IMG/VR virus record: IMGVR_UViG_3300032330_001137 | Span: 1 to 57,380 of that record | Length of the DNA: 57,380 nt | Source: a virus | Taxonomy: Duplodnaviria > Caudoviricetes | Strand: one strand, 5' to 3' | Shown here: positions 8,610-36,559 of the stretch, in pieces | Layout: the number at the start of each line of letters is the position of its first letter | Position numbering within the stretch: the stretch's first letter is position 1 | The notes under the pieces: generated by a model | What the model saw: the letters and a program-made list of their open reading frames with translations, nothing else | The model's database searches: none | What the model was told of the DNA's origin: nothing | Translations under genes and position numbers: made by a program

Positions 8610-9086
8610 TTATTCGTCGGCCCCGAAATGCGATTCGGAACCCCAGACGTCGCTTACGAGTTTGGCAACCCGTATCGTGCGACGTGAGCCGTCCAATTTA
8701 CGCACGGAAACATACCGCCAGCCGCTTGGACGGATGAATTCGCTGACCATGTAGCAGGAGCCTGCTGCGGAGCCTCTAGAGGGCCTCTGGATGCAATACA
8801 CGGCCCCGTATTTTGTGACTGCTATCGTCGGATAAAGCGGATGCACTTTTGCGCCTTCGTTCGCGAAGATGATTTCCGCTGAAAGCGTCGGCTTCGGGTT
8901 GGCGATTTTGTCGATGCAAACGCGCTTTCGCTTTCCGGTATCGTCGGTGACCTGCGAATACCATTTGCCGCAGCGATACTCGCGGCGAAGCTGCTTGCCG
9001 TCCCGAAGGACGTTCCCCTTTTTGTCGATGGCGTAGTGTTTTGCGTTGTGGAGCGTTTCCATGAAGCGAGATTCGTTCGTTTCCAT
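8610..9086 (-). CDS. Putative DNA-binding protein with tandem NUMOD4-like domains, no HNH
   Basis: Two YAIDKKGNV / IAVTKYGAV ... G.RYV.V...G.RRT.RV.KLV-type units; no HNH residues follow. Confidence 0.5.
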   Translation of the reverse strand: METNESRFMETLHNAKHYAIDKKGNVLRDGKQLRREYRCGKWYSQVTDDTGKRKRVCIDKIANPKPTLSAEIIFANEGAKVHPLYPTIAVTKYGAVYCIQRPSRGSAAGSCYMVSEFIRPSGWRYVSVRKLDGSRRTIRVAKLVSDVWGSESHFGADE

Positions 9087-9155
9087 TTCCCGTCAAGTCA
9101 ATTCTTTTCCGTCAATTCTTTTCCTTACCCTTATATATAAACTTTATTATTACTT

Positions 9156-9191
9156 GGAGTTACATTGGTTTCCGGAAACCAATGTAACTCC
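9156..9191. repeat. Perfect 36-bp palindrome (copy 1 of a dispersed element)
   Basis: GGAGTTACATTGGTTTCC|GGAAACCAATGTAACTCC in an AT-rich non-coding region. Confidence 0.95.
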
Positions 9192-9544
9192 GTATATTAT
9201 AAGAGTATTTTAGGGGGGTTTCAAAATAACAAAAGATTGAAAAATCAATGAGTTACGATTTTCAAGTTTGAAAAAGCCTGAAAAACGTCAAATCTTTTCG
9301 GTATTACATTGGTTCGCAAGATTTCGGTTCTCCGACCGAAAACGGCCAATTCGGCATCGTTTTAACCTGAATCGATGCCGCGAGAGCCACGTTTTCGGGG
9401 GGCTGGAGGCGGACTGATCTTAAAAAATTACCGTTCGGGCATTTTCTTGCCAGCACCTTCGAAAAGTTTGAATAATTACTGATCGGGAACTTTTTTCTGC
9501 GACGGGAGGTTGAAAATCCTGTCTGGTTTTTTCAACCTGAACCC

Positions 9545-9802
9545 CTAACCTGCATCCTGAACCTCCTGCGCGGACAGGGCATCTCGCTTCCTTTTTCGGG
9601 ACTCGACGATCCTTTCTCGATTGGCGAGATAGTAGTTTCGGTTATACACACACACGGCTTCGCGCTTCTCTGGATCGATTACCGCATCCACTTCACGCTT
9701 TCGGATGATCCGATTCCGGTTCTTGATGTAGTAATTTCGTTGATACTGAAGGCGTTCTTCGCGTTTCGCTTTGTAGTATTGCTGCTTTTTTTCGTCGGCC
9801 AT
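9545..9802 (-). CDS. Small basic helical protein
   Basis: Repeated YY..NRERI-like motifs; preceded by TTGACA-17-TAGGGT-6-ATG. Confidence 0.7.
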   Translation of the reverse strand: MADEKKQQYYKAKREERLQYQRNYYIKNRNRIIRKREVDAVIDPEKREAVCVYNRNYYLANRERIVESRKRKRDALSAQEVQDAG

Positions 9803-9808
9803 GCGTGG

Positions 9809-9837
9809 ACCCTAAACCGAAAGCGGGATAGTGTCAA
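9809..9837 (-). promoter_or_regulatory. Leaderless sigma70-type promoter
   Basis: TTGACA-17-TAGGGT, 6 nt to ATG 9802. Confidence 0.6.
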
Positions 9838-10153
9838 ATTTTTTCCTATGCATACATATATGTATGCAAACGCGGCAGAAAAAACAGCCGACCCACCCGT
9901 GGCGTGGCTCATAACTTGTAACAACAGAGGTAATGCTGGATTGGCTGGCTGTTGATTATCAACGACTTGCATCAATTCACCACTGTTTCTTAACTGGTTT
10001 GAATGGTTACTATATAAGGGCTGCCAGATTCACCTACCATGAAGTATACTAATGGCAGGCACCGCAGCGGCGCGGCCTTGCTGTGATGCCTGTCAGCGGT
10101 TCGTTCCCCTGCTGTCCTGCAATGTTTCGATGAGAGGGGGAAACGAACGGCAA

Positions 10154-10182
10154 TTGCAACATCCGGTTGCAACCCGTATCCT
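10154..10182 (+). promoter_or_regulatory. Early promoter with overlapping dyad
   Basis: TTGCAA-17-TATCCT; palindrome TTGCAAC-N5-GTTGCAA at 10154-10172. Confidence 0.55.
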
Positions 10183-10208
10183 GATTCCCGATCGCTGAAA
10201 CAAATACC

Positions 10209-10760
10209 ATGAAGACTGAAACACAAACCACCATCGTTGAAGCCGCCACAGCCGCCATCACCGCCGCCGCTCTTGAAGCGGTCACCGCCATCGTAACGGC
10301 GAAGGCGGCTCTGACCATCGTCATCCGCGATCAAGTGAAGATTCTTGAGAAAGCAGGCATCTCCCAAAAGGAGATCGCCGCCATCGTGAAGGAAGCCGTC
10401 GGCACGGCGGCTTCGCCATCCCATATCAGCCGCACGCTGACCGCTTGCGGCGTCAGGCTTCGCGGCAAGCGGGCCGACGCAGGCTTTTTGCGCTTGGCCG
10501 ATGGTGCCTTGCAGGCGGCGATGGAAGCGAAGCCCGCCCCTGATAAGGGCGACGACGATGACGGCGAAGGCGACGACGATGACGGCGAAGGCGAAGGCGA
10601 AGGCGAAGGCGAAGGCGAAGGCGAAGGCGGCGGGCATACCGCTCAGACTCTCGCCGCTTTGCTGGCATCACTTGAGCCGCAACTTGTCGCCCGCGCTCTT
10701 GAAATTGCTGGCCTGATGGACTCCGATGGATGCGGCGGCGGATCATTCCGCGCAATCTGA
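10209..10760 (+). CDS. Early hypothetical protein (possible HTH plus acidic D/E-G tract)
   Basis: GISQKEIAAIV...SPSHISRTL; (GAAGGC)n encodes the EG repeats. Confidence 0.7.
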   Translation: MKTETQTTIVEAATAAITAAALEAVTAIVTAKAALTIVIRDQVKILEKAGISQKEIAAIVKEAVGTAASPSHISRTLTACGVRLRGKRADAGFLRLADGALQAAMEAKPAPDKGDDDDGEGDDDDGEGEGEGEGEGEGEGGGHTAQTLAALLASLEPQLVARALEIAGLMDSDGCGGGSFRAI

Positions 10761-10840
10761 AACTCCGCACCAGCAACGGTCAACCCTTAGTGAGCCTATC
10801 ACTAAGGGTTGACCTTCCCCATCATCCAATCCACAACCCT

Positions 10841-10917
10841 CCACCACCACCACCACCACCACCACCACCACCACCATGAGCACCACCACCACCACCACCA
10901 CCACCACCACCACCACC
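10841..10917. repeat. (CAC)n microsatellite, two runs split by ATGAG
   Basis: About 11 units upstream of ATG 10876, then 12 ACC codons before ATG 10918. Confidence 0.95.
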
Positions 10918-11232
10918 ATGAACACCTCCACCACTGCAATCATCCGCGCCGCACGTGCGCTATCCATCCCGCTGCTAAATCGCTCCATCTGGAGCGATCT
11001 GGCGGCGTCCTATAGCCTCCCCACCGTGTCGCCCGAGATGGCGGCATGGCTGGGACGCCATCCCGAAGCGGCAAACTCCGCGCCCGCCTCACGGGTCGGG
11101 CGCAAGCTCACCACCTCCGCGCTGGAGGCATGGCGGGTGCTTTACGCACCCTCTGTTCGAACCGTGCTGGCTGCGCCAGCCAAGCACAAGCCCGCCGCCA
11201 AGCGGGCTTACCGCGCCCAGCTTGTCGGCTAA
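10876..11232 (+). CDS. Early hypothetical protein (alternative start 10918)
   Basis: ORF lying between hairpins 1 and 2. Confidence 0.65.
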   Translation: MSTTTTTTTTTTTTMNTSTTAIIRAARALSIPLLNRSIWSDLAASYSLPTVSPEMAAWLGRHPEAANSAPASRVGRKLTTSALEAWRVLYAPSVRTVLAAPAKHKPAAKRAYRAQLVG

Positions 11233-11298
11233 CCCCAGCAACGGCCACTAGTGCAACCCGCACTAGTGGCCTGCCCTTTCATCCAATCCACCACCACC

Positions 11299-11610
11299 AT
11301 GAGCACCACCATCACCAAAACCGTTTTTCGAACCTTCCGCCAATCTGGCGAAACCATTGCCATCTTCCCAGAGGAACCTGCTGACATTCGCGGAGACTTC
11401 TGCATGTCATACATGCAGATCGGGCAGCACGGTGCTGCCTCGCCGATGGGCGCGGAATTTGCCAGCATCACCCGCCCCGCCACCCCAGAGGAGATTGCGC
11501 CGCTGCGGCGGGAGCTTGGGGCCATCGGCTACAAGCTCGCTCCGGTCCTGCGTGTCTCTTACAAGATGCATCAGGCCCGCCGCCAGAACGCCAACCCTTC
11601 CCGCCCATGA
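11299..11610 (+). CDS. Conserved early phage hypothetical protein
   Basis: VFR...GETIAIFP...CMSYMQIGQHG...PATPEE..PL.REL..IGY pattern. Confidence 0.75.
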   Translation: MSTTITKTVFRTFRQSGETIAIFPEEPADIRGDFCMSYMQIGQHGAASPMGAEFASITRPATPEEIAPLRRELGAIGYKLAPVLRVSYKMHQARRQNANPSRP

Positions 11611-11756
11611 CGTTCTCAGCCCTCGTTCTAATCGCCAGCCTTTTCGCCTCCCAGTGGGCGATCTTTGGGCTGGCCCGCGCCTTCCTCTACACGCCCGCCA
11701 TCGTCGCGGCAGCGGCTGCTCTGTGGCTCGTCGCCGCGCTCGCCGCCGCTCTGTGA
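11607..11756 (+). CDS. Small membrane protein (49 aa)
   Basis: ATGA overlap with the previous gene; MTFSALVLIASLFASQWAIFG...AAAALWLVAALAAAL; below the ORF-track cutoff. Confidence 0.6.
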   Translation: MTFSALVLIASLFASQWAIFGLARAFLYTPAIVAAAAALWLVAALAAAL

Positions 11757-11819
11757 ACCCCGAACCCCGAACCCTTAGTGCCCACGCACTAAGCGTTTCG
11801 GAGCTTTCTCAGAAAAGAA

Positions 11820-11847
11820 TTGACGGCACGCCGCCCGCCTGTAAAGT
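11820..11847 (+). promoter_or_regulatory. Putative promoter of the AAA gene
   Basis: TTGACG-16-TAAAGT; preceded by AGAAAAGAAT as is the 14021 promoter. Confidence 0.5.
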
Positions 11848-11894
11848 GGCGGCACGCTTGATTGAATAACAACTGAAACAGAAAGAACTAAAAG

Positions 11895-12956
11895 ATGAAA
11901 CTCCCATCCGCAAATATCGGCCAGCTCACTTCACTGGCCCGCATCGCCTTCCAATCCAATCGCTTTCTGGCGATCTATGGGAAGGGCGGAGTCGGTAAAA
12001 CGACGATACCCAAGACCATCATCGCGCCCGCTTTGGGCTTCGATGAGACGTGGATCGTGAATCTGTCAGGCTCAGGCCCGCAAGAGGCCATAGGCTACGG
12101 CATTCCCGACTCGACCACCAGAGATCTCTGGTTCTCGTCTCCCGAACAGTGGCCGACTGCCAAGCGCGTCGGCAGCAAGCGCGTCCTGCTGGTGCTCGAT
12201 GAATATCCCGAATGGGACGCATCGATTCAAAGCTTGTGCCGTTCGCTCTTCAATCCAACGGGCAACGCCCGCATCGGGACGCATGACTTAGGCGAGAACG
12301 TCCGCATCATCGTGACTGGCAACCGTCGCTCTGACGGCACCCGTTCCGCCGTGCCCGCCGCGCCATTCGTGGAGCGGTGCTTGTCGGTGTGCGTCGAGCC
12401 GACGCTGGACGAGTGGCTCGACTGGGCTGCGTCCACCGGACTGGCGGCATCGCCTGTCTACACGTTCCTCCGCTTCGCGAACGGCGAAGGCGTGGATCAC
12501 TTCAATCCTGACGTGCCCGCGCCGTGGGACGGCTCGCCGCATGCCTGCCCGAGAGCGTGGGAAGCGGCGTGCCGCATCGATGCGGATGAAGATCCGGCCA
12601 TGCTCTCGCTCGCTCTGCGCGGGCTGGTCGGCGAAGCCAGTGGCTCCGCTGCCTACGCCTTTTGCCAACTGGTCGCGGCGTTCCTGCCACGGCTCGCCGC
12701 CATCCGCGCCGGAACGGAACGCCTGCCTGCTGATCCATCGGAGCAGCACGCGCTGATCCACGCAGCGGTGCGGGTGGCTCGAAAAGAATCAGCCGCCGAT
12801 CCTGAGGCCGCTGTCGCCGCTGGCTCGCTCGACTGGCTGGTCCGCCTGCTGGTCTCCGCCAGCGGCGAGCTTAGACAATGGGGCTATACATGCGCCACCC
12901 GCAACGGCATCCCACTCGACCAGCACCCGCAGCGTTCTGCCATGCAAGGCGTCTGA
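11895..12956 (+). CDS. MoxR-like AAA+ ATPase
   Basis: Walker A GKGGVGKT, Walker B LLVLDE, sensor TGN, CPRAW lid motif. Confidence 0.85.
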   Translation: MKLPSANIGQLTSLARIAFQSNRFLAIYGKGGVGKTTIPKTIIAPALGFDETWIVNLSGSGPQEAIGYGIPDSTTRDLWFSSPEQWPTAKRVGSKRVLLVLDEYPEWDASIQSLCRSLFNPTGNARIGTHDLGENVRIIVTGNRRSDGTRSAVPAAPFVERCLSVCVEPTLDEWLDWAASTGLAASPVYTFLRFANGEGVDHFNPDVPAPWDGSPHACPRAWEAACRIDADEDPAMLSLALRGLVGEASGSAAYAFCQLVAAFLPRLAAIRAGTERLPADPSEQHALIHAAVRVARKESAADPEAAVAAGSLDWLVRLLVSASGELRQWGYTCATRNGIPLDQHPQRSAMQGV

Positions 12957-13042
12957 TCCACTGGCGGGCTTAGTGCGGATGCACTAAGCCCGCCTTCACT
13001 CGCCAAGATCTTCACTCTCCAGTAAAACAGAAAGAAAACATA

Positions 13043-13948
13043 ATGAACACCACCACCAACAACCTGTCCGTCATCAACTCACTTGTGCTTGTGAAATTCG
13101 GAAGCACCGCACCGTCGACCAGCGTCCTGCATAAAGGCGCAACGGCTAGCGTCTGCTCCACGAACGGGGCGAAAAAGAAGACCGCCCGTGTGCGGGTCAC
13201 CACCATCGAACGAAGCGGCACGGCTATCGGACGCGCTGCCTCGCTGGTCAATACGATCAGCCAAGCCATTCGCAAAGTGGCGTTGCCATGCCCGACCATC
13301 GAAGGCGCATCCTATGTGCAAGCGAAGGACGTGGACCACGTGCAACGCATCTTCGACGACGGTCTCGCCAAGCTGGCGGAGATCCGCCGCGAGATCTGCG
13401 CGGAGTGGCCCGCGCTGGTCAGCGAAGCACGCACCTCGTTGGGTGCGCTGGCTTACGAAATCGAGTGGCCGACTGGCTCCGACTTCGCCAGCCGCTTCGA
13501 TATCACGCTCACTTGGATGGGGCAACCCGCCGCGATCACGGGCACGATATTGGAAGGCGTAAGCAATGAAGTAGCGGCACGCGTCCGCGCCTCATCGGAA
13601 GCCAGCGTGAAGGCCGCGCTGCTTGAAGCGCACGGCTCGCCCATCCGCGACCTGCTCACGGAACTGATCGGCACGGCGTCTGTCACCGGAACCATCGATC
13701 AACTCTCGACGGGCAAGCGCATCCGCCGTGAGCGGTTCGACAACATCCGCGAGCACGCCGCCCGCATCAAGTCGCTCAACTGGCTGGAACTGCCGGAACT
13801 CGACACGCTGGTCACCGCGCTGGAAGCGTCGGTCGATGGCATCGATGGCGACTCTGAGCTGTCGAAGGGCACGCTCGATGCGGCGGTCGGCAAGATCAAA
13901 GCTGCCCGCGCTGTGGCGGAGAACACGCTCGCCGCTCTGGGCATCTGA
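13043..13948 (+). CDS. Helical hypothetical protein (DUF3150-like) between the AAA and vWA genes
   Basis: 301 aa with WP....F..RF motif; position in the AAA/vWA triad. Confidence 0.6.
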   Translation: MNTTTNNLSVINSLVLVKFGSTAPSTSVLHKGATASVCSTNGAKKKTARVRVTTIERSGTAIGRAASLVNTISQAIRKVALPCPTIEGASYVQAKDVDHVQRIFDDGLAKLAEIRREICAEWPALVSEARTSLGALAYEIEWPTGSDFASRFDITLTWMGQPAAITGTILEGVSNEVAARVRASSEASVKAALLEAHGSPIRDLLTELIGTASVTGTIDQLSTGKRIRRERFDNIREHAARIKSLNWLELPELDTLVTALEASVDGIDGDSELSKGTLDAAVGKIKAARAVAENTLAALGI

Positions 13949-14020
13949 TGCCCGCACCGCCGGAGGCTTAGTGCATCTGCACTAAGCCTCCGGCCTACCT
14001 TTCGAATAAGAGAAAAGAAT

Positions 14021-14049
14021 TTGACAAGCTCTCACATAGCCCGCATCCT
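14021..14049 (+). promoter_or_regulatory. Putative promoter of the vWA gene
   Basis: TTGACA-17-CATCCT; downstream sequence resembles that of the 10154 promoter. Confidence 0.5.
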
Positions 14050-14075
14050 GAATCCCGAACCCTGAATCCTGAAAC

Positions 14076-15575
14076 ATGAACGCCTCCATCACTCCCAACA
14101 TCAACGGCTCCGCCGTCCTTGATCAAGCCATGCGGCGCGTCCGCGATCACTGGCCGCTCGCCTACTCCAAGCTCCTCGCCATGCGCTGGAGCGAGACCAG
14201 CGGCACGGCTTACGGCTGCACCGACGGTCGCCAGCTCAAGCTCAACCCATTGGGGCTGGCTCGCCTCAACCGCACGTCCGATCCCGTCGGGCTGACTGCC
14301 TTCCTGCTGGTGCATGAGGCACTGCACGCGCTGCTCTCACACGGCGAACGCCTCAGCCGCCTGCAGGATCACAACACCGCCAACATCGCCGCCGACTACG
14401 TGATCAACGCCATGATCAAACGCCGCAACAGCGAGATTCTCGCCAAGTCGGGCATCATCCCGTTCCCGTTCATCGAAGGCATCCTCTTCGATGAAGCTAT
14501 CAGCAAAGACTTCAATGCGGAGGAACTCTATCAGCGTCTGCTTAAGCCGCAGCCGCAGCCGCAGCCGCAACCGCAACCCGATGAGTCGGGCGACGACGGC
14601 GAAGCTGGCGACGACGGCGAAGTGGGCGACGACGGCGAAGCTGGCAACGAAGCGGGCGACGAAGCGGGCGACGAAGCTGGCGATGAGTCGGGCGATGGTC
14701 AGCCATCCGATGAGTCGGGCAACGGCGATGCCGATGCTGGCAATGACAGCGGCGAAGGCGAAGCTGGCGGCGGCGAAGCTGGCGGCGGCAAAGCTGGCGG
14801 CGGCAACGCTAACGGAAGCGAACGCCAAACGGACAAGGAAATCTTGGGCGACAAGTGGGTGGGCACGGGCGCGGTCGATACGGCCAAGCCTGAGCTGGCT
14901 GGCGATGAGACGGCGGAACAAGTGGCCGACGAGATCGAAGCGTCGAACGAGTCCATCCTGATCGGTGACCAGATCGACAAGCGTGCTGGCATGAGCGGCG
15001 CGGGCGGCTCCCGCCAGATTCAACAGCAGCGGGCACGCACTGGCGGGCTGGACTGGGCTGACGTTCTACGCCAGTGGCTGACAGCACGGTGCGCTGGCGG
15101 ATGGGACAAGCCATTCAACGCGCCGATCTACACCTGCACCGGAACCGTCGCCGCTGGTCGCCAGAAGAAGGCACTGCCTGAGATCGTCGTCGTCGTCGAC
15201 ACGTCATGCTCCGTGCCTGACTCGCTGCTGGCGGAGATGCTCGCGCAACTCCAGCACTGCTTGGATACGCTCCGGCCTGAAGCCATCCATCTTGTCTCTT
15301 GCGACGCCCGCATCCGTGAGACGCATGAGCTGCGCGAAGGCGACTTCGTCCCGAACAAGCTGATCGGTGGGGGCGGCACGCTCTTCTGCCCAGCCTTCGA
15401 CTGGATGAAGGAGAACGTCCCGAATGCGGAGGGCATGATCTACCTGACCGATGGAGAAGCGTGGGACATGGGCAGCGTGGAGGAGCCGCCATGCCCGATG
15501 CTCTGGCTCGACTACGGCACGCGTGGCGCGTCTGCCTATCCTTTCGGTGAAGTGGTTTCGTTCACTCACCGCTGA
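14076..15575 (+). CDS. Metallopeptidase plus vWA-like protein (DUF2201-type)
   Basis: TDG, HEALH zinc motif, NIAADYVIN, acidic linker, MIDAS-like DTSCS, GGGGT, YLTDG. Confidence 0.85.
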   Translation: MNASITPNINGSAVLDQAMRRVRDHWPLAYSKLLAMRWSETSGTAYGCTDGRQLKLNPLGLARLNRTSDPVGLTAFLLVHEALHALLSHGERLSRLQDHNTANIAADYVINAMIKRRNSEILAKSGIIPFPFIEGILFDEAISKDFNAEELYQRLLKPQPQPQPQPQPDESGDDGEAGDDGEVGDDGEAGNEAGDEAGDEAGDESGDGQPSDESGNGDADAGNDSGEGEAGGGEAGGGKAGGGNANGSERQTDKEILGDKWVGTGAVDTAKPELAGDETAEQVADEIEASNESILIGDQIDKRAGMSGAGGSRQIQQQRARTGGLDWADVLRQWLTARCAGGWDKPFNAPIYTCTGTVAAGRQKKALPEIVVVVDTSCSVPDSLLAEMLAQLQHCLDTLRPEAIHLVSCDARIRETHELREGDFVPNKLIGGGGTLFCPAFDWMKENVPNAEGMIYLTDGEAWDMGSVEEPPCPMLWLDYGTRGASAYPFGEVVSFTHR

Positions 15576-15638
15576 TATAAACCAACGGGGGGAGCGCATC
15601 CGATCACGCTCGCAAACTGAAACAACAACCAACTGGAT

Positions 15639-16055
15639 ATGAAATACAAACTGACAGGCGAATCGAAAGAGATCGACGGCGTGACACTTTACAGAATCGA
15701 AGCCCTTAGGGCCTTTGGAAATGTGAGCGTCGGACATATAGGCGGATGGGTAGAATCGGAAGCTAACCTGTCGCATGACGGCAATGCTTGGGTCTACGAC
15801 GATGCTCAGGTCTACGGCGATGCTAAGGTCTACGGCGATGCTAAGGTCTACGGCGATGCTAAGGTCTACGGCAATGCTTGGGTCTACGACGATGCTCAGG
15901 TCTACGGCGATGCTAAGGTCTACGGCGATGCTCGGGCCTACGACAATGCTAAGGTCTACGACAATGCTTGGGTCTACGGCAATGCTTGGGTCTACGGCAA
16001 TGCTAAGGTCTACGGCGATGCTTGGGTCTACGGCGAGATAGACTCACTTCAGTGA
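15639..16055 (+). CDS. Hexapeptide-repeat (left-handed beta-helix-like) protein, copy 1
   Basis: LYRIEAL..FGNV..G.IGGWVESEANLSH followed by (VYGDAK/VYGNAW)n, an 18-bp DNA repeat. Confidence 0.85.
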   Translation: MKYKLTGESKEIDGVTLYRIEALRAFGNVSVGHIGGWVESEANLSHDGNAWVYDDAQVYGDAKVYGDAKVYGDAKVYGNAWVYDDAQVYGDAKVYGDARAYDNAKVYDNAWVYGNAWVYGNAKVYGDAWVYGEIDSLQ

Positions 16056-16065
16056 GACCGAACCA

Positions 16066-16090
16066 AAAAGTCAAGACGGTCTTGACTTTC
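16066..16090. terminator. Palindrome/terminator between the paralogs
   Basis: AAAAGTCAAGAC-G-GTCTTGACTTTT. Confidence 0.5.
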
Positions 16091-16147
16091 CCCGATGCGT
16101 AGCTTTCCGCTGAGATGGAGCACCAACACTAAACAAAACAGAACATC

Positions 16148-16819
16148 ATGAAATACAAACTGACAGACGAATCGAAAGTGATTAACGGCGTGACGCTTTA
16201 CAGAATCGAGTCCCTAACGGCCTTTGGAAATGTGAGCGTCGGAGATATAGGCGGATGGGTAGAATCGGAAGCTAACCTATCGCATGACGGCAATGCTTGG
16301 GTCTACGACGATGCTCAGGTCTACGGCGATGCTAAGGTCTACGGCGATGCTCGGGCCTACGACAATGCTAAGGTCTACGGCAATGCTAAGGTCTACGGCA
16401 ATGCTTGGGTCTCCGGCAATGCTAAGGTCTACGGCAATGCTAAGGTCTATGGCAATGCTTGGGTCTGCGACAATGCTAAGGTCTACGGCAATGCTTGGGT
16501 CTGCGACAATGCTAAGGCCTACGACAATGCTTGGATATACGGAGATGCTCAGGTCTACGGCGATGCTGATGTCTTCGGAAATGCTGTGGTCTCCGGCAAT
16601 GCTCTGGCCTACGGCAATGCTCGGGTCTACGACAATGCTTGGGTCTCCGACAATGCTAAGGCCTACGACAATGCTTGGATATACGGAGATGCTCAGGTCT
16701 ACGGCAATGCTCTGGCCTACGACAATGCTCAGATCTACGGCAGTGCTCGGATCTCCGGCAGTGCTGAAGTCTCCGGCAATGCTAAGGTCAATGCTGTGGT
16801 CTGCGGCAATGCTGCCTGA
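16148..16819 (+). CDS. Hexapeptide-repeat protein, copy 2
   Basis: Near-identical N-terminus to copy 1 with a longer repeat tract. Confidence 0.85.
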   Translation: MKYKLTDESKVINGVTLYRIESLTAFGNVSVGDIGGWVESEANLSHDGNAWVYDDAQVYGDAKVYGDARAYDNAKVYGNAKVYGNAWVSGNAKVYGNAKVYGNAWVCDNAKVYGNAWVCDNAKAYDNAWIYGDAQVYGDADVFGNAVVSGNALAYGNARVYDNAWVSDNAKAYDNAWIYGDAQVYGNALAYDNAQIYGSARISGSAEVSGNAKVNAVVCGNAA

Positions 16820-16882
16820 GCCCGAGCCGCTGCCGGAATCTGCCGAAACCCCAACACAAAACCAAACTGAAACCAAAACAAA

Positions 16883-17068
16883 ATGCATACTGATACCATT
16901 ACCATTGGACGCAATGTCCATCTCACCATCGCAATCATGCGGGCTGTGGCCGCACGACAAGCCGCAGCCGAAGCGAAGATGCAACGGAAGAATCGAATCA
17001 TCCGTGCAATCAAGCGCACGCTGTTCCTGATCCCTGCAACCTCAATCCGATTCCGGTTCAAGCCATGA
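16883..17068 (+). CDS. Small basic hypothetical protein
   Basis: A-rich leader; ATGA overlap with the next gene. Confidence 0.55.
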   Translation: MHTDTITIGRNVHLTIAIMRAVAARQAAAEAKMQRKNRIIRAIKRTLFLIPATSIRFRFKP

Positions 17069-17370
17069 TCAACAAACGAATCCAAGCACGTGCCGCCAAG
17101 CGGGAGGCCGACGCCGCCGAAAGACACCAGCGTCTCGTCGCTAGTGCGGCTGTCACTAAGCTGCATGAGTGGGCCACGCTGCGGCAAGTCAACGAATGGT
17201 GTGCCGCTGTGCGTAACCAGATGGGGCTGGGACCGATGGATGAGATGCCAATGCCGAAGCTGCTCGCTGACATGAGAGCGAGCCGACACGTCACCATCGA
17301 TATCGGAAAGCTCGACCAGCCAGCACGCGCTCGACTGTTCGCCGCGATCACGTCCATCTTGACTAAGTAA
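17065..17370 (+). CDS. Hypothetical protein
   Basis: Translationally coupled 101-aa ORF. Confidence 0.65.
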   Translation: MINKRIQARAAKREADAAERHQRLVASAAVTKLHEWATLRQVNEWCAAVRNQMGLGPMDEMPMPKLLADMRASRHVTIDIGKLDQPARARLFAAITSILTK

Positions 17371-17375
17371 ACAAA

Positions 17376-17480
17376 ATGGAAAACAATCCAAGAGACATCA
17401 TCGCCGGAGCAATCCTGCAAGCGATCTGCTTGATAATCGTAGGGGGCGCGGCTCTCATACTGCTCATATCCCACTTGTAA
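17376..17480 (+). CDS. Small single-TM peptide (34 aa)
   Basis: MENNPRDIIAGAILQAICLIIVGGAALILLISHL fills the gap between neighbours. Confidence 0.5.
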   Translation: MENNPRDIIAGAILQAICLIIVGGAALILLISHL

Positions 17481-17492
17481 ATTGATTGATAA

Positions 17493-17780
17493 ATGAAACA
17501 CGTAACACAAAAACTAATCGAAGTCGGCGGGCATCCCGTTGACGTGAAGGCACGGATCGAAAAGCACGGATGGGTGGTCATCACCTTCACTCCTGCATTC
17601 TCAATCCGCTCATCGAAACTGCATCTTCCTTTTGCGCGGGACGCATTCATCAACTCCATCATCTGCGGGCTGTTGGATAATGAATCGCCCGACTACGAGA
17701 AGAAGTTCGGTGAGGCATACGCTGAATTGAATGCGACCCTTGAGCTTGTCACCGGAAACTTCAATGCTGAGGAACCCTGA
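17493..17780 (+). CDS. Hypothetical protein
   Basis: 95-aa ORF in the operon. Confidence 0.6.
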   Translation: MKHVTQKLIEVGGHPVDVKARIEKHGWVVITFTPAFSIRSSKLHLPFARDAFINSIICGLLDNESPDYEKKFGEAYAELNATLELVTGNFNAEEP

Positions 17781-18135
17781 TTCCGGTAACCTGATCCTTG
17801 AAACAATAGCCCGCCGTGCAGGAGTCACGGCGGGCGTTCTTTTCGAGTCGCGTAACAAAGAGATAGCAGCATGGCGGAAGATCGCCATCTACCTGCTCCG
17901 TAAATCAGGACGCACGATGGCGGAAGTCGCAGCCATCGCATCACGCGATGCCTCAACGATCAGTCGTTTGATATCGGAGATCAACGAAGTGAAGAGAAGG
18001 AAGTGGTTCCAAGACTTATCTGATTCAATAGAAGAAGAATTGGATAAGCGGTCGATCTGCATTCGGGCCAATGAATTCTGCCAGCGCATACCGATGGAGG
18101 TATACGCTCAAGCATTTGCGTCGGCGGACGATTAA
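17764..18135 (+). CDS. DnaA C-terminal-like HTH protein
   Basis: SRNKEIAAWRKIAIYLLR...MAEVAAIASRDASTI resembles DnaA domain IV. Confidence 0.65.
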   Translation: MLRNPDSGNLILETIARRAGVTAGVLFESRNKEIAAWRKIAIYLLRKSGRTMAEVAAIASRDASTISRLISEINEVKRRKWFQDLSDSIEEELDKRSICIRANEFCQRIPMEVYAQAFASADD

Positions 18136-21100
18136 GGTTCGATCATTATGTAGCGGCTGTACTTCTTCAACTCGTCGTCGGCGATCAACAGTCGGTCCAT
18201 CCCCTGTTCGTTCGTAGGATCAGCGAGCCTACTTTGGAAGTCAGGCGAAAGCACGGGCCGATCCATTAGCTTGTTGAACAACAAGCGGGATCGGTCTTTG
18301 CCGTAGCCCATGTTCTTGCTCGTCATAATGCTGTAGATGTCTTGTGGCTTTAGGCCCAAGCCTTCATAGCCGCGCATCTTGCGGTAGATGTCTTCGTTCA
18401 TCGCGGCTTTGTCATAGACTTCAGACTTGATGATGTCGCGGACCGCAGCCTCATCGATTGGTTTCTTGCTGAACAGCACGTTCTTCCGTTCGTTGATGCG
18501 GTTGTAGACATCACGTGTCTCCGACAGATAGCGGCGGAGTTGCTTGTCCAGTTCGATATCATGTCGCTTAACAGGATAGAATTCCTGCATCAGGATTCCT
18601 GCTGGCGAATTGTCAAAATCTGTGTAGTCAGATCCGACAGCCTGATAAGCTTTGATGATGCGGTTCGCTGCGCTTGGCATATACGCTTGGCGGAACACGT
18701 GAGACATCGACTTGAGAACAACCGCTCCTGCTGAATCGATCTTCGGCTCATAGATCGGCTTGTCCGTGGACGGGTCACGGTTATCGCGCAGCGATTGGAT
18801 CGCGGACGAGAAGATCTGATCGTCGAGATACTGATCAAAGATCGCTGTCTCGACAAACTTAGCCGCCGCCTTTGCCGGATCTCCGCGAAGGAGATGCTCC
18901 ATTGAACGCATCGTCGGATCTGATACCAACGAATACGGATTGAGGAACGTGAAGTCCCACGATTGCAGCTGGCCGTTATCATCGCGGCGATAGAAGAACG
19001 TGTGGTTCCTTAAGTAAGATGGAAGCGAAGCGCGTAGTGCCTCATCCTCATCGTCTCCGATGCCGACCAATGCGCGGATCACGGCAGGCACAACCATCGA
19101 AACGCCGCCGATCACGAAGGTCATGCCTGCGAAACGCTTCTGTCCGCGTGCCGCGATCACGCTGTTGCCGCTCTTCATCTCGTCGAACGCGAGCTTGTAA
19201 GTATTGAGAACGATGCGCGGAACTTCCGCTTTGAATCGGAGGAACGGCGAGAACAGTAGGCCGATGCCAGACTTCGTGATCTCTTTGACGATTGGCGGTG
19301 CTTGGCTCGCCGACTGCGCCGTCATCAGGACTTTCCGCGCAGCTTCACGCTTCAGATCATAGTCGCTCATCGTCGCGAACTTACCGCCGCCCGCACCTCT
19401 CGCGCTGTTAAGCACTTTGAGTTCGTTCTCATAGTAGGCGATCTTGTAGAAGGCATCAGCGGCAGACGCTAGCTGCTGTGCCTTATCCGTCATCCATGTG
19501 AGTGGCTTCGTTCCCGCGTGCCCGATCTTGATCAGCTTGTCCAGCTGGCTTTCAATAGACTGGATCGTGGTAGTCCCGCGCAGGAGATCCGCCATAACAG
19601 TGGATTGGGTTTCATTTCCAATGACGCCCAACGATATGAGTTCGGTGCGATATGCTTCGATTCGATTCGGGTCAGTGAGCGAAGACCAGATCTCGTTGCG
19701 AGCGGACTCAGCCATCGATCCGATATTGAAGAATCCCTGAGAAGGACCGAAGAACGCCATGTTGCTGACGACGTTGCGGATGTAGAATCCAACTGATCCT
19801 AACGTCTTCGCAGCCATCGCTCCGCCTGTAAGCTTCGCAAACAGATTGGTTGTCTTTGCGACTAAGTCCTGAGCCGTGTCCATGTTCTGCTTACGCGCTT
19901 CAGAGGAGAACACTTTGTTCAGACCATCGACCAGTTCCGGTGGTCCGAAGAGATCGCCCAACGGATCGTAGGCTGATGCTTCTTTGTTCGACCGGATCAT
20001 GCCGTAGTTCTTATAGGTATCGTAGTCGGACACCATCTTGTCATCCAACTCTTTTCGGGTCAGCAACCATCCGCCTTCAACACCGATGGTCTTAACGTGT
20101 TGGAGGAAGGATTGATTAGCCGCCATCGACGAGACCGTTACGAACGAGCGAAGCAGGTTATCGGCTCCAGATTCGGGACCATACTCTCCCAAGATGTTGC
20201 GGAGTTCTACCGGAATATCTTTCTTCTGCTTAATGTTCTTCTGGAGGATGCGGAACGATTCCGACATCGTTGATCCCGCTGAACCGGAGAGACCCTTCTT
20301 CTCGTATTGCGAGATGAATTCCTCTAGCGCGTTCTCCGCAACAGACCGTCCGTTACTGGCTTTGTTTGCAAGATCGATACGGGCATTGTTCTCCGCGTCG
20401 GATTGGGTCTCGCCCGCAGCCATACGCCGTGCCGTCTCATGCTCCATGAACTGGTTCTCAAAGAACGTCATCGCCGCCTGACGCTGCGGCTCATATGATG
20501 GATCGCTCCGAACAATGTCAGCGAAGCCAACTTCGTGGAACATCTTATACGAGCGGGTTAAGTAGATGCCAAGTTGCGAATCGAATGTGGCTTGAAGCTC
20601 AGGCTTGAATCCATACAGAGAAGTAACGCGTTTAGATACTTCGTCGGTAAGCGTTCTGAGTTGAACAATGTGGCGTGCAAGTTCGGGTGATTTGTTCGCG
20701 AGATTTTCGAGCGCGGTATCCCGCAATGAGCGGATGGCGTCGGCTTGTGCCGTGCGTTCCACATCAATCGATTGCATTTTGGCATCGAGAGCAGTCCGGC
20801 GGGCCGCTGTCTTCTGCTTTGCGTTGAGCGTGTCATCGATGCTGATCGTCTCAAGTGCTGCCTGATACGTGTCTTCGATCTGATCGACGACATCCTGATT
20901 CAGGACCGTGCCGTGTGTAGATCCAATCGCTGCCGCGATGTCATCGAGCGGAGCATTCTCAAGCGAACCGAAGTCTTTCTTGATGATGCTGTCGAGCTTC
21001 GTCTTGTAGTTCTGAACGAGACTCGTCGCCGCGCTTTTGAAGAAGTCGCGGTGGTTCTTCAGAGTAGTAATGCGCGGATCGAGTTCTCCTTTGAACAAGC

Positions 21101-24100
21101 GATCAAGCACGTTCTTTGGCGAGCGATACGTTCCGACTTCAAGCATCGGCATCTCCAATGCCTGCAAGAAGTTGCTGAAGTCCATCTTGTCCGCGTCGAA
21201 GCGAGCGGGCAACTGCGAGACATCGCCGAAGGATGTTTGCAGGATGCTGTTACTCTTCTGGTTGAATCGTTGCGATAGAGGAATCACGTTTCCATTCTCA
21301 TCGCGGGTAATCGGATCTGCGGATTTAACTTTATTTGGGTCAAATATGGCAAAGCTAGTTATGTTTCCATCTCCTCTTTCACTTTCGTAGTAACCATCAA
21401 AACCAAGTTGTCGAATTAGATCTTGGGCACTACTATTTTCAAAAACGTCATAGTCAGCGGCTTGCAGTTCTGCGTCATCGATATACATCAATTTACGCAA
21501 CGCAGACCTGTGATCTTGCACTCGCGGGTCGAAGAGATTGTTACTGCCAAACACTCCCAAAATAATAGGTTCAGTTGATTCTGAATCCAACTGATCACCC
21601 TCTCGATCAACAATATGCCTAACATTTTTGGCTTGAGCTTCAGCAAAATCTTTTGCCATTTCTGGGCGAAGAGCAACATGCATTGCTACACCTCTATGTC
21701 CTCGGGGAATCGTGAATTTATATGCTGTTCCATGCCACCCTTTTATGGTGTACCCCGCAGCCTTCGCCGCTGCATCCACCATCTGCTGCATCTTTGCAGT
21801 GTCGCCAGCATCAACGGCTTTCAGATACTCAGCGTCTGACTGACGTGAGACATCGCCGAAGGATGTTTGCAGTGTGCCTGCATTAGGCATGGATTGCTTG
21901 TTGGATGCTGGAGGTATAGACTTAACGGCTGCCTGCTGCGCCGCCATTGCCTCATCATAGGTGGCATAAAGCGGAACTTGGTCGCGAATTGCATCGTAGC
22001 CTTCTGTCCCGATCTCTGGAAGACCTGACTTGCCAGTTGGGTCTTTGACCATTAGCACGACGTCTGGCTTGCCTGCTAGATCATAAGGCCAATTTGGAGG
22101 TGCGTAGTCTGAGTTAAATGCAATCCTCGCGACTGGGCGGAATCCAATTTTGGAATACAGGTTTGGAAGGAACCCGTTGACGTCATACGCATCCAGCGTT
22201 GTTGCGTAATTTGCCGCTTCTTTAAGAATTGGTAGTATCTTCTCCTTGCTCGATGGGTGCTTGAACACGCTGACAAGGTCACCATACGAAGTCACTGCAA
22301 CTCCAGTCAAGTCATCGGGGGCGAGGAAGAGTCTGGTTCCGCTGTCGTTGTAGAAGGAGGCATCTTTGACCTCAACTGCTGCACCCATTGGGTGGTCGGA
22401 TGCAGTTCTTCCAATTCCTTCAAGAAATTTTCGTCCGACATCAGGCTCATTCCTGATGCTGCGTTCATAAACGCTTGTTGCGGTGTTTTCTTTTTCGTTT
22501 CCATTTGGTAATGTTTTGAAATTTGTTTCTAGCGTGTCGCCGAAGGACGTTCCTACAGAGACATTAGTTTGTCCAGCAGCTGTTCCAACTGCGCGTCCGT
22601 CATCCCCTCCGCTATTTCGTGCGGCTCTATCGGTTCGGATGGACTCTGCGATTGAGAGAGCGTCGTCTCCGAGCCCTCGTTGTTTTGCGATGGTGATGAA
22701 TTCTTCGTCATAGGATGATTTGAGGTTACTCTCTGGCTTGCCCGTAAGCAGTGCCCAGAGATCTTTTTCGGGATACCAAAGGATAGCTTGGATGTCCGCA
22801 TTGGTTGTAGTGTAGCCTAGAGCTTTCAGTTGTAAACGACTATTGTTCACGATCTCTGTGATCACGCGTCGGTCTTGATCAGATGGTGCATCGATGGGGT
22901 TGAGCTTCGATTTGATAACGTTCGCTGCATTGGCCCACGCTGGCTTGATTGCAGAGACTTCTTTGTTGGTGAGGACGATATCCCTGCCTGCTTTGGCGAA
23001 CTTCAAGAGTCTCCAATCAGCAATCGGAATTTGTGGGAGCTTGTTGCTCTCAGCTAGCTTATCAAATTTGATTGGCAACTCGTTAAGTCGGGCATTGCGC
23101 TCCGCTTCTGAGAGTTTGTTTTTCCTAGCGTCTGCGTTGATGCTCTTCGTTTTGTTGCCAATCCATACTTCCCTGCTGATGGAAGGGAGTGACTTGCTGG
23201 TTGAGAGAATCTTATAGTCGGCGTTGATTTTCTCGATGAACGCGTCCGTCGATGCAATATACTTACCGATGGACAGTTCACCGGACAGCATGGCGTCATA
23301 CAACTTTTTGTTCAGCGGTAAGCTCAACAACTTGAATTGACGTTGCCATTCGGCATCGAGTTTAGTTGCCGTCTCATTGCATAGCTCTCTAAACTTGAAA
23401 TCATTTTCGAGTTTAGCGGCGGCAGTGTGATGCACTGTCATTTTAACCACGCCATCCTTTTCGATTAGCTTGCCTTTAGAGTTTAGCGCAGGTACGAACC
23501 TAATCTTTTTAAGTTCGTCTGGCAGGGCTACCTTTGCGGCCTTTGCCCCGAGAATAAGATTGGTGAGTCTTTCTTCGGTGACTCCATCTCCCACTACGTC
23601 GCCAGTCCAGCGACCCCATGTGCGGCGCATCCATAGATCGACAGTGACAGGAGTGAAGTTTGACATCAGGTTCTGCAAAAAGCCCTGTCCGATCTTTGGT
23701 CCGAAGATTGCGGCTCCGTTCACTTTGTCTTTTTTCGCTCCGGTGACAGATACTTTCTTGCCACGGATATCGCTCGCGATTGTCGATAGATCTTTAATGG
23801 TAAATTCTTTCTTAACAAAATCTTCCGATTTGGCGTAGCCATATTTTGCAACTAGCAAGTTTGCCAGATTGAGGTTGCTCTTAATGGCGTCCGCTTTTGA
23901 TCCGTAGCTTCTCGTATTGTCGAACTTACCGTTAAGCTTTAACAATGTGAACTGTTCTTCAGCGTATCTAGTATTCTGTTCTACGTTGATATTCTGCGAC
24001 GTGATCGCCAACGCCATTCGCATTGCAAATCTTGCAGCTTGAACAGGATCTTCCGAAGCTGCAAAGGCAGGAACTGCTCTTGCCGCATCGACATTGGATA

Positions 24101-33150: not shown

Positions 33151-33314
33151 ATGTATTTACATTGTAAGTGGATGCCCCCTTAAAATTCCTAGTATAAAAA
33201 CTTTATTATTAGTTGGAGTTACATTGGTTTCCGAAAACCAATGTAACTCCATTCATTATAAGAGTTTTTAGTGGGGGGTCTGGAAAGGCCCATCCGCTTA
33301 CAATGTAAATACAT
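33151..33314. repeat. Concentric inverted repeats (copy 2 of the palindrome)
   Basis: Inner 33215-33250; outer 24-bp arms at 33151-33174 and 33291-33314 (1 mismatch); both centred at 33232.5. Confidence 0.95.
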
Positions 33315-35802: not shown

Positions 35803-36086
35803 TCACCACATACAAACAACGCCTACAGTTTCCCGCAAAAATCGCGATCAGCGACCCGCAAGTAATCTTTAAGGAGAAGTATGAAAATTCAGATGAGTAT
35901 TCCTACTACAGCGAAATGGTTGCCGGAGACTTCTACCGCGTGATTCCAACGTCACCACGTGAGATCAGCTTCTTTGCGAGCCTTAAGAAATACGTTGAGG
36001 TCTTTGCTCCAGCGAAAGGCAACGGGCTTATTGTCCGCGCTGACGTCATCGACGCCTTTGATCCACCGCCAAAGAATCTGAAGTGA
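35799..36086 (+). CDS. Hypothetical protein
   Basis: ATGA and GTGA overlaps on both sides. Confidence 0.7.
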   Translation: MITTYKQRLQFPAKIAISDPQVIFKEKYENSDEYSYYSEMVAGDFYRVIPTSPREISFFASLKKYVEVFAPAKGNGLIVRADVIDAFDPPPKNLK

Positions 36087-36559
36087 TCATAGGAATCGAT
36101 AACGGTCTTGATGGTGGACTCTGTGCGATCTCCGAGCACAGCGGATCGATTATCGACAAGTTGGCGATGCCTACGTTCCAGCGTGCCGGAAAGCGTGAAG
36201 TCGACACAAAGACGATTCTGAACTGGATACGCGACCTGAACACTGAACCGTTGATCGCGATTGAGGAACCGCTAAAACACGCGAAGTCTTCTCAAGCGAT
36301 GCGTTCAATGGGCATTTCGTTCGGGAAAATTTTGGGCATGTGCGAGTCACATGAACTCAAAGTCAAGCCAATCCAAGTGCTGGATTGGCAGAAGAAGATG
36401 TTGGGCAAAGTGCCTAAGTCCCAAACGAAAGTCTTCGCTTTGAGAAAAGCGAACGAACTTGCGCCCGACGAAGACTGGCGAAAGAATGGACGATGCACTG
36501 TTCCGCACGACGGAATCGTCGATGCTTTTTTGATTGCTTTTTACACTGCAAAACTATGA
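36083..36559 (+). CDS. RuvC-like Holliday junction resolvase
   Basis: IIGIDNGLDGG, AIEE, SFG...G, W.K, HDGIVDAFLIA. Confidence 0.85.
   Translation: MIIGIDNGLDGGLCAISEHSGSIIDKLAMPTFQRAGKREVDTKTILNWIRDLNTEPLIAIEEPLKHAKSSQAMRSMGISFGKILGMCESHELKVKPIQVLDWQKKMLGKVPKSQTKVFALRKANELAPDEDWRKNGRCTVPHDGIVDAFLIAFYTAKL

Follow-up and report, generated by a model that had tools for sequence, protein, structure and literature searches.

Hairpins with a conserved core follow stop codons in a probably early operon of an uncultured freshwater phage and coincide with cassette breakpoints in its relatives

The DNA analyzed here, called the window below, is the complete 57,380-base record of an uncultured freshwater phage (IMGVR_UViG_3300032330_001137, estimated to be 95 per cent complete), and our subject is a set of five hairpins, H1 to H5, that follow the stop codons of five consecutive genes on its plus strand. 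These genes belong to a plus-strand block (10209–18135) comprising four small genes, genes for a MoxR-like AAA ATPase (11895–12956) and a 301-aa protein (13043–13948), a gene for a DUF2201 metallopeptidase/VWA protein (14076–15575), two beta-solenoid genes, and others. Predicted products elsewhere in the window include a large terminase, a family-A DNA polymerase, a primase, a helicase, an exonuclease, a RuvC-like resolvase (36083–36559), endolysins, and a tail fibre. No close cultured relative was found by DNA or by terminase, and the DNA polymerase shares at most 28 per cent identity with those of cultured phages. No RNA polymerase domain or motif was detected in the window, in scans that covered part of its open reading frames (ORFs), so the host polymerase presumably transcribes the hairpin region; the sigma-70-like promoters there make it plausible that the genes are early. 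The hairpin-bearing part of the window (10001–16000) is 59–65 per cent G+C, compared with about 45–55 per cent in the remaining genome. On the plus strand of the hairpin region C exceeds G, and T is scarce.

All five inverted repeats were found where a preliminary description of the window had placed them, each within about 20 nt of a stop codon (Table 1), the arms of H3 being slightly wider than the span of 11774–11793 given there. Folded as RNA, none of 200 shuffles of any of the five (the basis of the z-scores) folded as well. Loops are 2–5 nt long. The five hairpins have five different loops and unrelated outer stems, and both arms of the core are intact in each. H3, H4, and H5 have the core CTTAGTGC-N4-GCACTAAG, and H1 and H2 carry the two variants that had been reported for them. 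H1 and H2 also have flanks in common, as described before, with CCAGCAACGG upstream (10770–10779 and 11235–11244) and CATCCAATCCAC downstream (10823–10834 and 11280–11291). A near-identical copy of H2 with the same loop occurs in a related locus (L013, 1058–1084), and the copy of H3 in another (L022, 6878–6907) has no C.C mismatch.

The pattern TAGTGN{2,10}CACTA matches six times in the 57,380 bases, compared with a mean of 0.08 in 100 dinucleotide-preserving shuffles of the window (largest count 1; none reached 6). The sixth match (17142–17158) lies inside an ORF and has a 5-bp stem, and was excluded as a member; the claim that the motif is absent from the rest of the window therefore holds apart from this one weak coding match. 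Table 1 also lists a weak sixth post-stop hairpin of different sequence.

Table 1. Hairpins and associated features of the window. Fold energies are in kcal/mol, with z-scores against 200 shuffles.
Feature	Coordinates	Strand	Sequence and structure	Position or context	Energy (z)
H1	10778–10814	+	GGTCAACCCTTAGTGA-GCCTA-TCACTAAGGGTTGACC; 16-nt arms, 100% paired	17 nt after stop of 183-aa gene (10209–10760)	-30.5 (-8.6)
H2	11243–11271	+	GGCCACTAGTGC-AACCC-GCACTAGTGGCC; 12-nt arms, 100% paired	10 nt after stop of 118-aa gene (10876–11232)	-26.5 (-7.8)
H3	11770–11797	+	AACCCTTAGTGC-CCAC-GCACTAAGCGTT; 12-nt arms, 92% paired, one C.C mismatch	13 nt after stop of 49-aa gene (11607–11756)	-21.2 (-3.7)
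H4	12963–12994	+	GGCGGGCTTAGTGC-GGAT-GCACTAAGCCCGCC; 14-nt arms, 100% paired	6 nt after stop of MoxR-like AAA ATPase gene (11895–12956)	-30.4 (-4.4)
H5	13959–13994	+	GCCGGAGGCTTAGTGC-ATCT-GCACTAAGCCTCCGGC; 17-nt arms, 100% paired	10 nt after stop of 301-aa gene (13043–13948)	-36.5 (-6.0)
Sixth post-stop hairpin	16067–16089	+	AAAGTCAAGA-CGG-TCTTGACTTT; different sequence, weak	11 nt after stop of first beta-solenoid gene	-11.6 (-1.2)
Promoter-like module after H3	11811–11847	+	A-rich AGAAAAGAA, TTGACG, 16 nt, TAAAGT
Promoter-like -35 module after H5	14011–14026	+	AGAAAAGAATTTGACA	Ahead of DUF2201/VWA gene (14076–15575)
465-bp cassette	10754–11218	+	H1 module and most of 118-aa gene	Missing from L021

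Protein-guided scans yielded thirty-six related loci (ten viral and twenty-six from metagenomes, designated here by L numbers) whose ATPase is 53–96 per cent identical to that of the window. A compact hairpin directly follows the ATPase stop codon in twenty-four of the thirty-one loci that cover it; six of the others have a long-loop stem enclosing a promoter-like AAAAAGATTTGACA, and one has none. Across the window and its relatives, post-stop hairpins begin 1–34 nt past the stop. Two families of cores can be distinguished. The first, TAGTGC...GCACTA, is found in the clade of the window, and the second, (G/A)TACTA-CSG-TAGTA(C/T) with variants that include CTGTAATA and GTGCTA, in other clades; the two resemble a single duplex with its arms swapped, such that the loop is at the other end. 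In other records that are complete or long, a single stretch of 3–6 kb contains four to nine clustered copies (e.g. five of six cores in a 60.6-kb genome, all four in a 59.7-kb genome, and nine within 5.3 kb of a third), and the five of the window fall within 3.2 kb, among small and poorly conserved genes.

An Rfam search of positions 9000–18200 (E up to 1) placed no family on H1–H5, its sole row being a chance match to MIR1120 (E 0.53) on a palindrome at 9139–9208. The exact core CTTAGTGC-N4-GCACTAAG had forty-one scattered matches in the genomes of 185,579 species (596 billion bases), where by our estimate chance alone would give about 140 for sixteen fixed bases. Two of these were in one chromosome of a metagenome-assembled genome (OZ007033.1) and the others were single; all were unrelated to the window, and no genome locus with the exact core matched it by tblastx. 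Among viral contigs, the exact core was found only in the known relative and in one unrelated record. With forty-one matches spread over unrelated taxa and one record holding two, we rejected the idea that the hairpins belong to a repeat family of the host resembling repetitive extragenic palindromic (REP) elements. The preliminary description had named a match to a host REP family, or a core not conserved in relatives, as grounds for giving up its reading; the genome scan turned up no such family, and the core is conserved.

We counted base pairs in an alignment of forty-three TAGTGC-family hairpins (forty-one distinct rows), from which one inverted copy and two false pattern matches were excluded. 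An alignment joining both core families misaligned the arms, and no pair counts were taken from it. Complementary bases fill 84.6 per cent of the 560 cells, compared with 67.2 per cent in shuffles (none of 500 as high) and 21.6–42.6 per cent when the partner column is slid. Double-sided changes occur at eleven of the fourteen pairs. The eight outer pairs vary freely yet remain paired, and at each of the six core pairs (pairs 9–14) the same pair is kept in 35–41 of the forty-one distinct rows. This pattern indicates that structure alone is selected in the outer stem and both sequence and structure in the core, which bears out what had been proposed from the window's five copies. The loops show no such constraint, with twenty-five different sequences among forty-four hairpins.

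A motif-blind scan collected every hairpin with at least nine Watson-Crick pairs in the window and the thirty-six loci and classed them by position alone. The sixty-three distinct post-stop hairpins have thirty-eight G.T or T.G mismatches and seven A.C or C.A mismatches (binomial p = 3e-6), the corresponding counts being eighteen and sixteen in seventy-one coding hairpins and eight and twelve in fifty-one others; homologous copies are included throughout, so fewer of the events are independent than these figures imply. Since a single DNA mutation that gives G.T on one strand gives A.C on the other, such a bias means that the plus-strand form of the hairpin has been selected. It points to sense RNA as that form, single-stranded plus-strand DNA being less likely. 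A simple C-to-T mutation bias is an unlikely cause, because the plus strand is rich in C and poor in T.

The same asymmetry bears on the suggestion, made in the preliminary description, that the hairpins are signals in single-stranded or cruciform DNA, whether promoters of the kind used by phage N4, primosome or single-strand initiation sites, or targets of a resolvase. The virion polymerase of N4 recognizes, by sequence and structure, template-strand hairpins with 5–7 bp stems and 3-nt loops, and the likeness is that in each case small conserved hairpins lie in the early region of a phage. Such signals would fit perfect palindromes in DNA that is perhaps the first to enter the cell, and they would also fit the encoded RuvC-like resolvase, the breakpoints at palindromes described below, and the 4414-aa ORF on the minus strand (18132–31376). 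This ORF is probably an ejected multi-domain virion protein. Its tblastn matches are limited to proteins annotated as ADP-ribosyltransferase, virion structural proteins, and minor capsid protein, and an HExxH stretch (HEYLHAF) was spotted in it by eye; neither Pfam nor PDB yielded a sequence match for it, no polymerase domain was found in it, and the DxDGD motif is absent from any real ORF of the window. N4 hairpins require a virion polymerase, of which we detected none, whereas the hairpins of the window have stems of 12–17 bp, show their wobble bias on the coding, non-template strand, and are tied in position to stop codons. We consider DNA signals of this type highly improbable.

One copy departs from this orientation. 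At 5654–5675 of L011 the hairpin is inverted: its loop, GGAC, is GTCC read on the opposite strand, and the plus strand shows an A.C mismatch, which suggests some leftward transcription nearby. It sits in a leader region upstream of the operon, beside a (GGCT)n/(GGAT)n run.

The preliminary description had also proposed that the hairpins bound exchangeable gene cassettes. We compared the window with relatives that are 89–99 per cent identical to it, reading the closeness of breakpoints to hairpins from the ends of BLAST blocks. L021 lacks a 465-bp cassette (Table 1) whose edges are the repeated flank CCAGCAAYGG-hairpin-...CATCCAATCCAC, and its lone hairpin region aligns both to the H1 module and to the H2 module. 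L023 has an insertion of a promoter, a 74-aa ORF, and a hairpin between H3 and the ATPase gene, and this insertion is flanked by a duplicated hairpin-promoter-leader module of about 110 bp. L022 has one more small ORF, which stands between H3 and the 49-aa gene; downstream of its 183-aa gene the hairpin is another allele, homology ending at the stop codon of that gene.

Comparable changes occur in a second, independent lineage, which has the other core family. L018 and L032 differ by a cassette of about 400 bp that ends at cores at 3890 and 4302, a single core being present in L032, and by further replacements. L019 and L038 share two blocks, each starting 3–4 nt before a core, in swapped order. 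Gene content upstream of the ATPase gene varies widely among the relatives, so the invariant gene order between hairpins that would have told against the cassette idea was not seen. Insertions, deletions, replacements, and order swaps alike break at hairpin or promoter modules, and we take these repeated modules to work as recombination boundaries.

Several other repeats were noticed. The genes have no Shine-Dalgarno sequence, and A/C-rich leaders in which CCTGAA/GAACCY units recur stand before their start codons, as in CCTGAATCCCGAACCCTGAATCCTGAAAC-ATG, with sites at 14040–14075, 9530–9560, and 11751–11775 and also in L015, L018, and L022. The number of these units differs between relatives, and they bound one insertion in L022. 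Two runs resemble microsatellites. A (CCA)n run at 10843–10920 extends over the leader and first codons of the 118-aa gene, a gene that starts MSTTTTTTTTTTTT, and is shorter in L021; a (GGCGAA)n run at 10550–10625 encodes a Gly-Glu run within the 183-aa gene. Two tandem paralogous beta-solenoid (YdcK-repeat) genes (15639–16055 and 16148–16819) are made of 18-nt repeats, the numbers of which differ between the window and L022.

The module that follows H3 is the predicted promoter of the ATPase gene, upstream of which it lies; relatives keep it together with a G+C-rich spacer. No clear -10 element was found after H5. The 13-mer of the promoter module also occurs twice on the minus strand in a divergent control region (9097–9124). 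No promoter was detected between H1, H2, or H4 and the next start codon, and polymerase must therefore read through these three to reach the genes behind them. Overall, TTGACRR lies within 70 nt downstream of twenty-five of sixty-two distinct cores, those of H3 and H5 being the only ones in the window.

A terminator scan of positions 9000–18500 called none of H1–H5, and the best 8-nt window at the 3' foot holds three or four T. The five thus have the hairpin of a canonical intrinsic terminator and none has its U-tract, as had been reported. Three of forty-three TAGTGC-family hairpins pass a lenient T-rich score, none with a real run. True T-runs are present at six of twenty-nine hairpins of the sister family, some with an A-run upstream, so the same class of hairpin also occurs as full terminators. 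A canonical hairpin with a T-run does exist in the window at 17809–17835, yet it lies in the frame of a DnaA-C-like helix-turn-helix (HTH) protein (17731–18135); it is conserved inside the same gene in L011 (13130–13158).

Stable hairpins that lack a U-tract are familiar from REP elements in bacterial operons and from the inverted repeats at the 3' ends of chloroplast mRNAs, which terminate poorly, block 3' exonucleases, and set message stability. The window's hairpins resemble both in being U-less and stable and in following coding regions. REP elements are a multi-copy family of the host, and the genome scan showed no such family for the core.

The closest likeness we found is to the promoter-early stem-loop (PeSL) cassettes of T4-type phages, which combine a promoter with a stem-loop, terminate transcription, and recombine (Arbiol et al. 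2010, PMC2839356), and which insert, delete, and circularize small genes (PMC2839356; Comeau et al. 2014, PMC4122927). A PeSL is a composite motif that recurs between genes and joins a sigma-70-like promoter, A/T-rich in its upstream part, to a stable stem-loop. PeSLs are concentrated among small genes of unknown function, and insertions, deletions, and replacements between close relatives break inside the motifs, including within or beside the stem-loop. The concentration among small genes recurs here, and so do the breakpoints, in comparisons of the window with L021, L022, and L023, of L018 with L032, and of L019 with L038 and L039. As for the composite motif, H3 has the promoter (TTGACG-16-TAAAGT), H5 has only a -35 module, and none was detected for H1, H2, or H4. 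The differences are also clear. PeSLs belong to the T4 lineage, and the window is an unrelated phage of about 57–60 kb without a close cultured relative. From the same portions, the stem-loop of a PeSL usually lies between or over the -35 and -10 elements and often has polyG followed by polyC; in the window it directly follows a stop codon, upstream of the promoter, and its apical helix is sequence-invariant and clade-specific. The window's copies further differ in having no U-tract and, in some cases, no promoter. Terminator activity and mini-circles were shown for the T4-type elements. PeSL-type cassettes are known so far from T4-like myoviruses, and literature searches listed no equivalent outside the T4-like phages.

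We favor an interpretation of H1–H5 as parts of PeSL-like modules that act as leaky terminators or stabilizers of mRNA 3' ends and as recombination boundaries in an early operon, and would put the chances of its being right at about even. Under it, each hairpin would be the stem-loop half of an intergenic module made of a stem-loop followed, where present, by an A-rich/TTGAC promoter and an A/C-rich leader, and the modules would punctuate a rightward, probably early operon transcribed by the host polymerase in phages of about 57–60 kb. The stem-loops most likely act in mRNA, given the selection for the sense-strand structure; they form 6–17 nt past each stop, are very stable, and have no U-tract. 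Host polymerase would mostly read through them, with some attenuation, and the hairpins may block 3'-to-5' exonucleases, so that the message of each cistron would owe its 3' end and its lifetime to them and neighboring cassettes would be insulated. The repeated modules are also the sites at which cassettes are inserted, deleted, replaced, and reordered between close relatives. The least secure step is that a trans-acting factor may read the near-invariant TAGTGC/GCACTA helix, or the other fixed helix in the sister clades.

Several observations, besides the homologous copies in the mismatch counts, weigh against this interpretation. Among sequencing runs recorded as RNA, none was listed as containing positions 9000–16000 of the window. 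The promoter half of the module is present at only two of the window's five hairpins, and the edges of the extra ORF in L022 are (GAACCY)n repeats that abut a hairpin, not the hairpin itself. No reader protein was found among the proteins of the operon, where the small ones have no informative Pfam or PHROG match. In relatives the palindrome often runs on through the loop, the ends of which are complementary (e.g. CGG/CCG, GCGG-C-CCGC); promoter-linked copies in some of them have stems of just 7–9 bp; and the distance from the center of the palindrome to TTGAC is 36–37 nt in nineteen of twenty distinct TTGACGG cases, although the intervening sequence differs.

The fixed distance and the palindromic loops, together with the swapped arms of the two core families and the reuse of core words described below, are DNA-level features that keep alive a reading of the hairpins as duplex-DNA operators. 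These would be palindromes for a dimeric phage regulator, for instance an HTH-like one, that activates or represses the TTGAC promoters from upstream or forms a roadblock shutting off early transcription. The 36–37 nt spacing presumably puts the core center near -71 of the promoter, promoter-linked copies may consist of the core only, and the 183-aa gene, in which an HTH-like stretch was seen by eye, is the first gene of the operon and is confined to TAGTGC-family loci. Stoperators of cluster A mycobacteriophages offer a parallel, in that many copies of one short conserved site lie in short intergenic gaps near gene ends of transcribed regions; they are asymmetric repressor sites in duplex DNA and not hairpins, whereas the outer-stem covariation and wobble bias of the window's hairpins point to RNA. 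A duplex site would have no need of long, covarying, G+C-rich outer stems, and neither duplex nor cruciform function can produce the G.T over A.C asymmetry. In addition, such a promoter within 70 nt is lacking at thirty-seven of sixty-two distinct cores, including those of H1, H2, and H4, and half-site spacings of 6 nt (fourteen cases) and 7 nt (twenty-eight) both occur in the window. We regard operators as quite unlikely.

The reused words come from a second, larger inverted-repeat module, the central palindromes of which repeat hairpin-core words of other genomes. It occurs twice in the window (9130–9215 and 33190–33275), with a 36–38 bp perfect palindrome, GGAGTTACATTGGTTT-CCGG/CCGA-AAACCAATGTAACTCC, and mirrored A/T-rich arms (AAACTTTATTATTA ... 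TATTATAAGAG) that resemble divergent -10 regions. Relatives keep its flanks (ATAAAAACTTT ... AAAGTTTTTAT), and their central palindromes are lineage-specific, some in three copies. The module may serve as an origin, or as a promoter/operator that works in both directions.

Dedicated RNA processing would account for several of the same observations as PeSL-like modules. A sequence-specific endoribonuclease of phage or host would cut the polycistronic early RNA and leave a protective 3' hairpin on each message, much as Cas6-type enzymes cut repeat hairpins and RNase III processes the early RNA of T7. Sense-strand RNA structures with one hairpin per cistron end, an apical helix that stays constant as loops and outer stems change, and the position of three of the five hairpins within transcription units, where no promoter follows them, all agree with it. 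The T7 comparison made in the preliminary description fares less well. T7 early RNase III sites are likewise related hairpins in a host-transcribed early operon, one between each pair of genes, and there too the hairpin stays on the 3' end of the upstream message, but they are longer, irregular stems, imperfect helices of about two turns that carry an internal loop where cleavage occurs. H1–H5 do not have this form: their stems of 12–17 bp are perfect but for the mismatch in H3, have no internal loop, and are conserved at the apical end, and relatives have the same core on stems of 7–9 bp, which fall short of what RNase III requires. Among the genes of the operon no candidate for a nuclease was found. 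T7-type sites are thus disfavored, and processing by a dedicated enzyme of any kind seems unlikely to us.

A different question is whether the core is read at all. The hairpins may be ordinary terminator-type structures without a reader, their shared core a house style left by duplication or gene conversion of an ancestral module. Duplicated modules are indeed seen, in the repeat of about 110 bp in L023 and the common flanks of H1 and H2, and the loop GTCC is shared by all six L011 copies, including the inverted one. Real U-tracts occur in six of twenty-nine core-bearing hairpins of the sister clades, core type follows phylogeny, and the ATPase tree is compatible with a single change of core type. 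In the window, however, the loops all differ and the outer stems are unrelated while the core arms are intact, and a recent copy made by duplication or conversion would have kept its loop. The core of the sister clades, ACTA-CSG-TAGT, persists, moreover, in loci whose ATPase is only 53–70 per cent identical to that of the window, deeper than neutral intergenic sequence should survive. A core inherited without function is thus improbable in our view, and we favor sequence-specific selection on the core helix, most simply through a trans-acting reader. That a protein recognizes the core, as was first supposed, is a reasonable inference.

The 301-aa protein, encoded between H4 and H5, was considered as such a reader. 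It is 54–99 per cent identical to that of the window in TAGTGC-family loci and 30–37 per cent elsewhere, while the ATPase identity ranges of the two core families overlap. In its tree the core families are set apart by about 2.1 changes per site, and the ATPase tree does not resolve them. This link between protein and core comes from a single transition, and the protein also evolves fast in L025 and L039, where the core does not change. Profile searches of Pfam and PDB gave no match for the protein, and its predicted fold (from a nineteen-row alignment; predicted local distance difference test score, pLDDT, 70.8) has no Foldseek match in the PDB at E<=0.001. A bolder reading would treat the apical helix as punctuation of the early mRNA, a code that differs between clades and is read by a co-evolving phage protein, with the switch from GTACTA-CSG-TAGTAC to TAGTGC-N-GCACTA coinciding with the burst of change in the 301-aa protein and the gain of the 183-aa gene. 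We hold this only tentatively, as doubtful on the present comparison. If true, hairpins and reader would together control how each cassette is terminated, processed, or stabilized, and the hairpins would perhaps also mark cassettes for exchange.

For PeSL-like modules, the interpretation we favor, the significance would lie in the recurrence of the same logic in unrelated phages, a portable stem-loop and promoter that regulates a small gene and provides the homology for moving it. Its presence in an uncultured freshwater phage unrelated to T4 suggests a general way of trying out new early genes. In addition, a clade-specific, invariant apical helix on a U-less hairpin of the sense RNA would give a handle on the question of whether such elements are passive terminators or are served by a dedicated factor.

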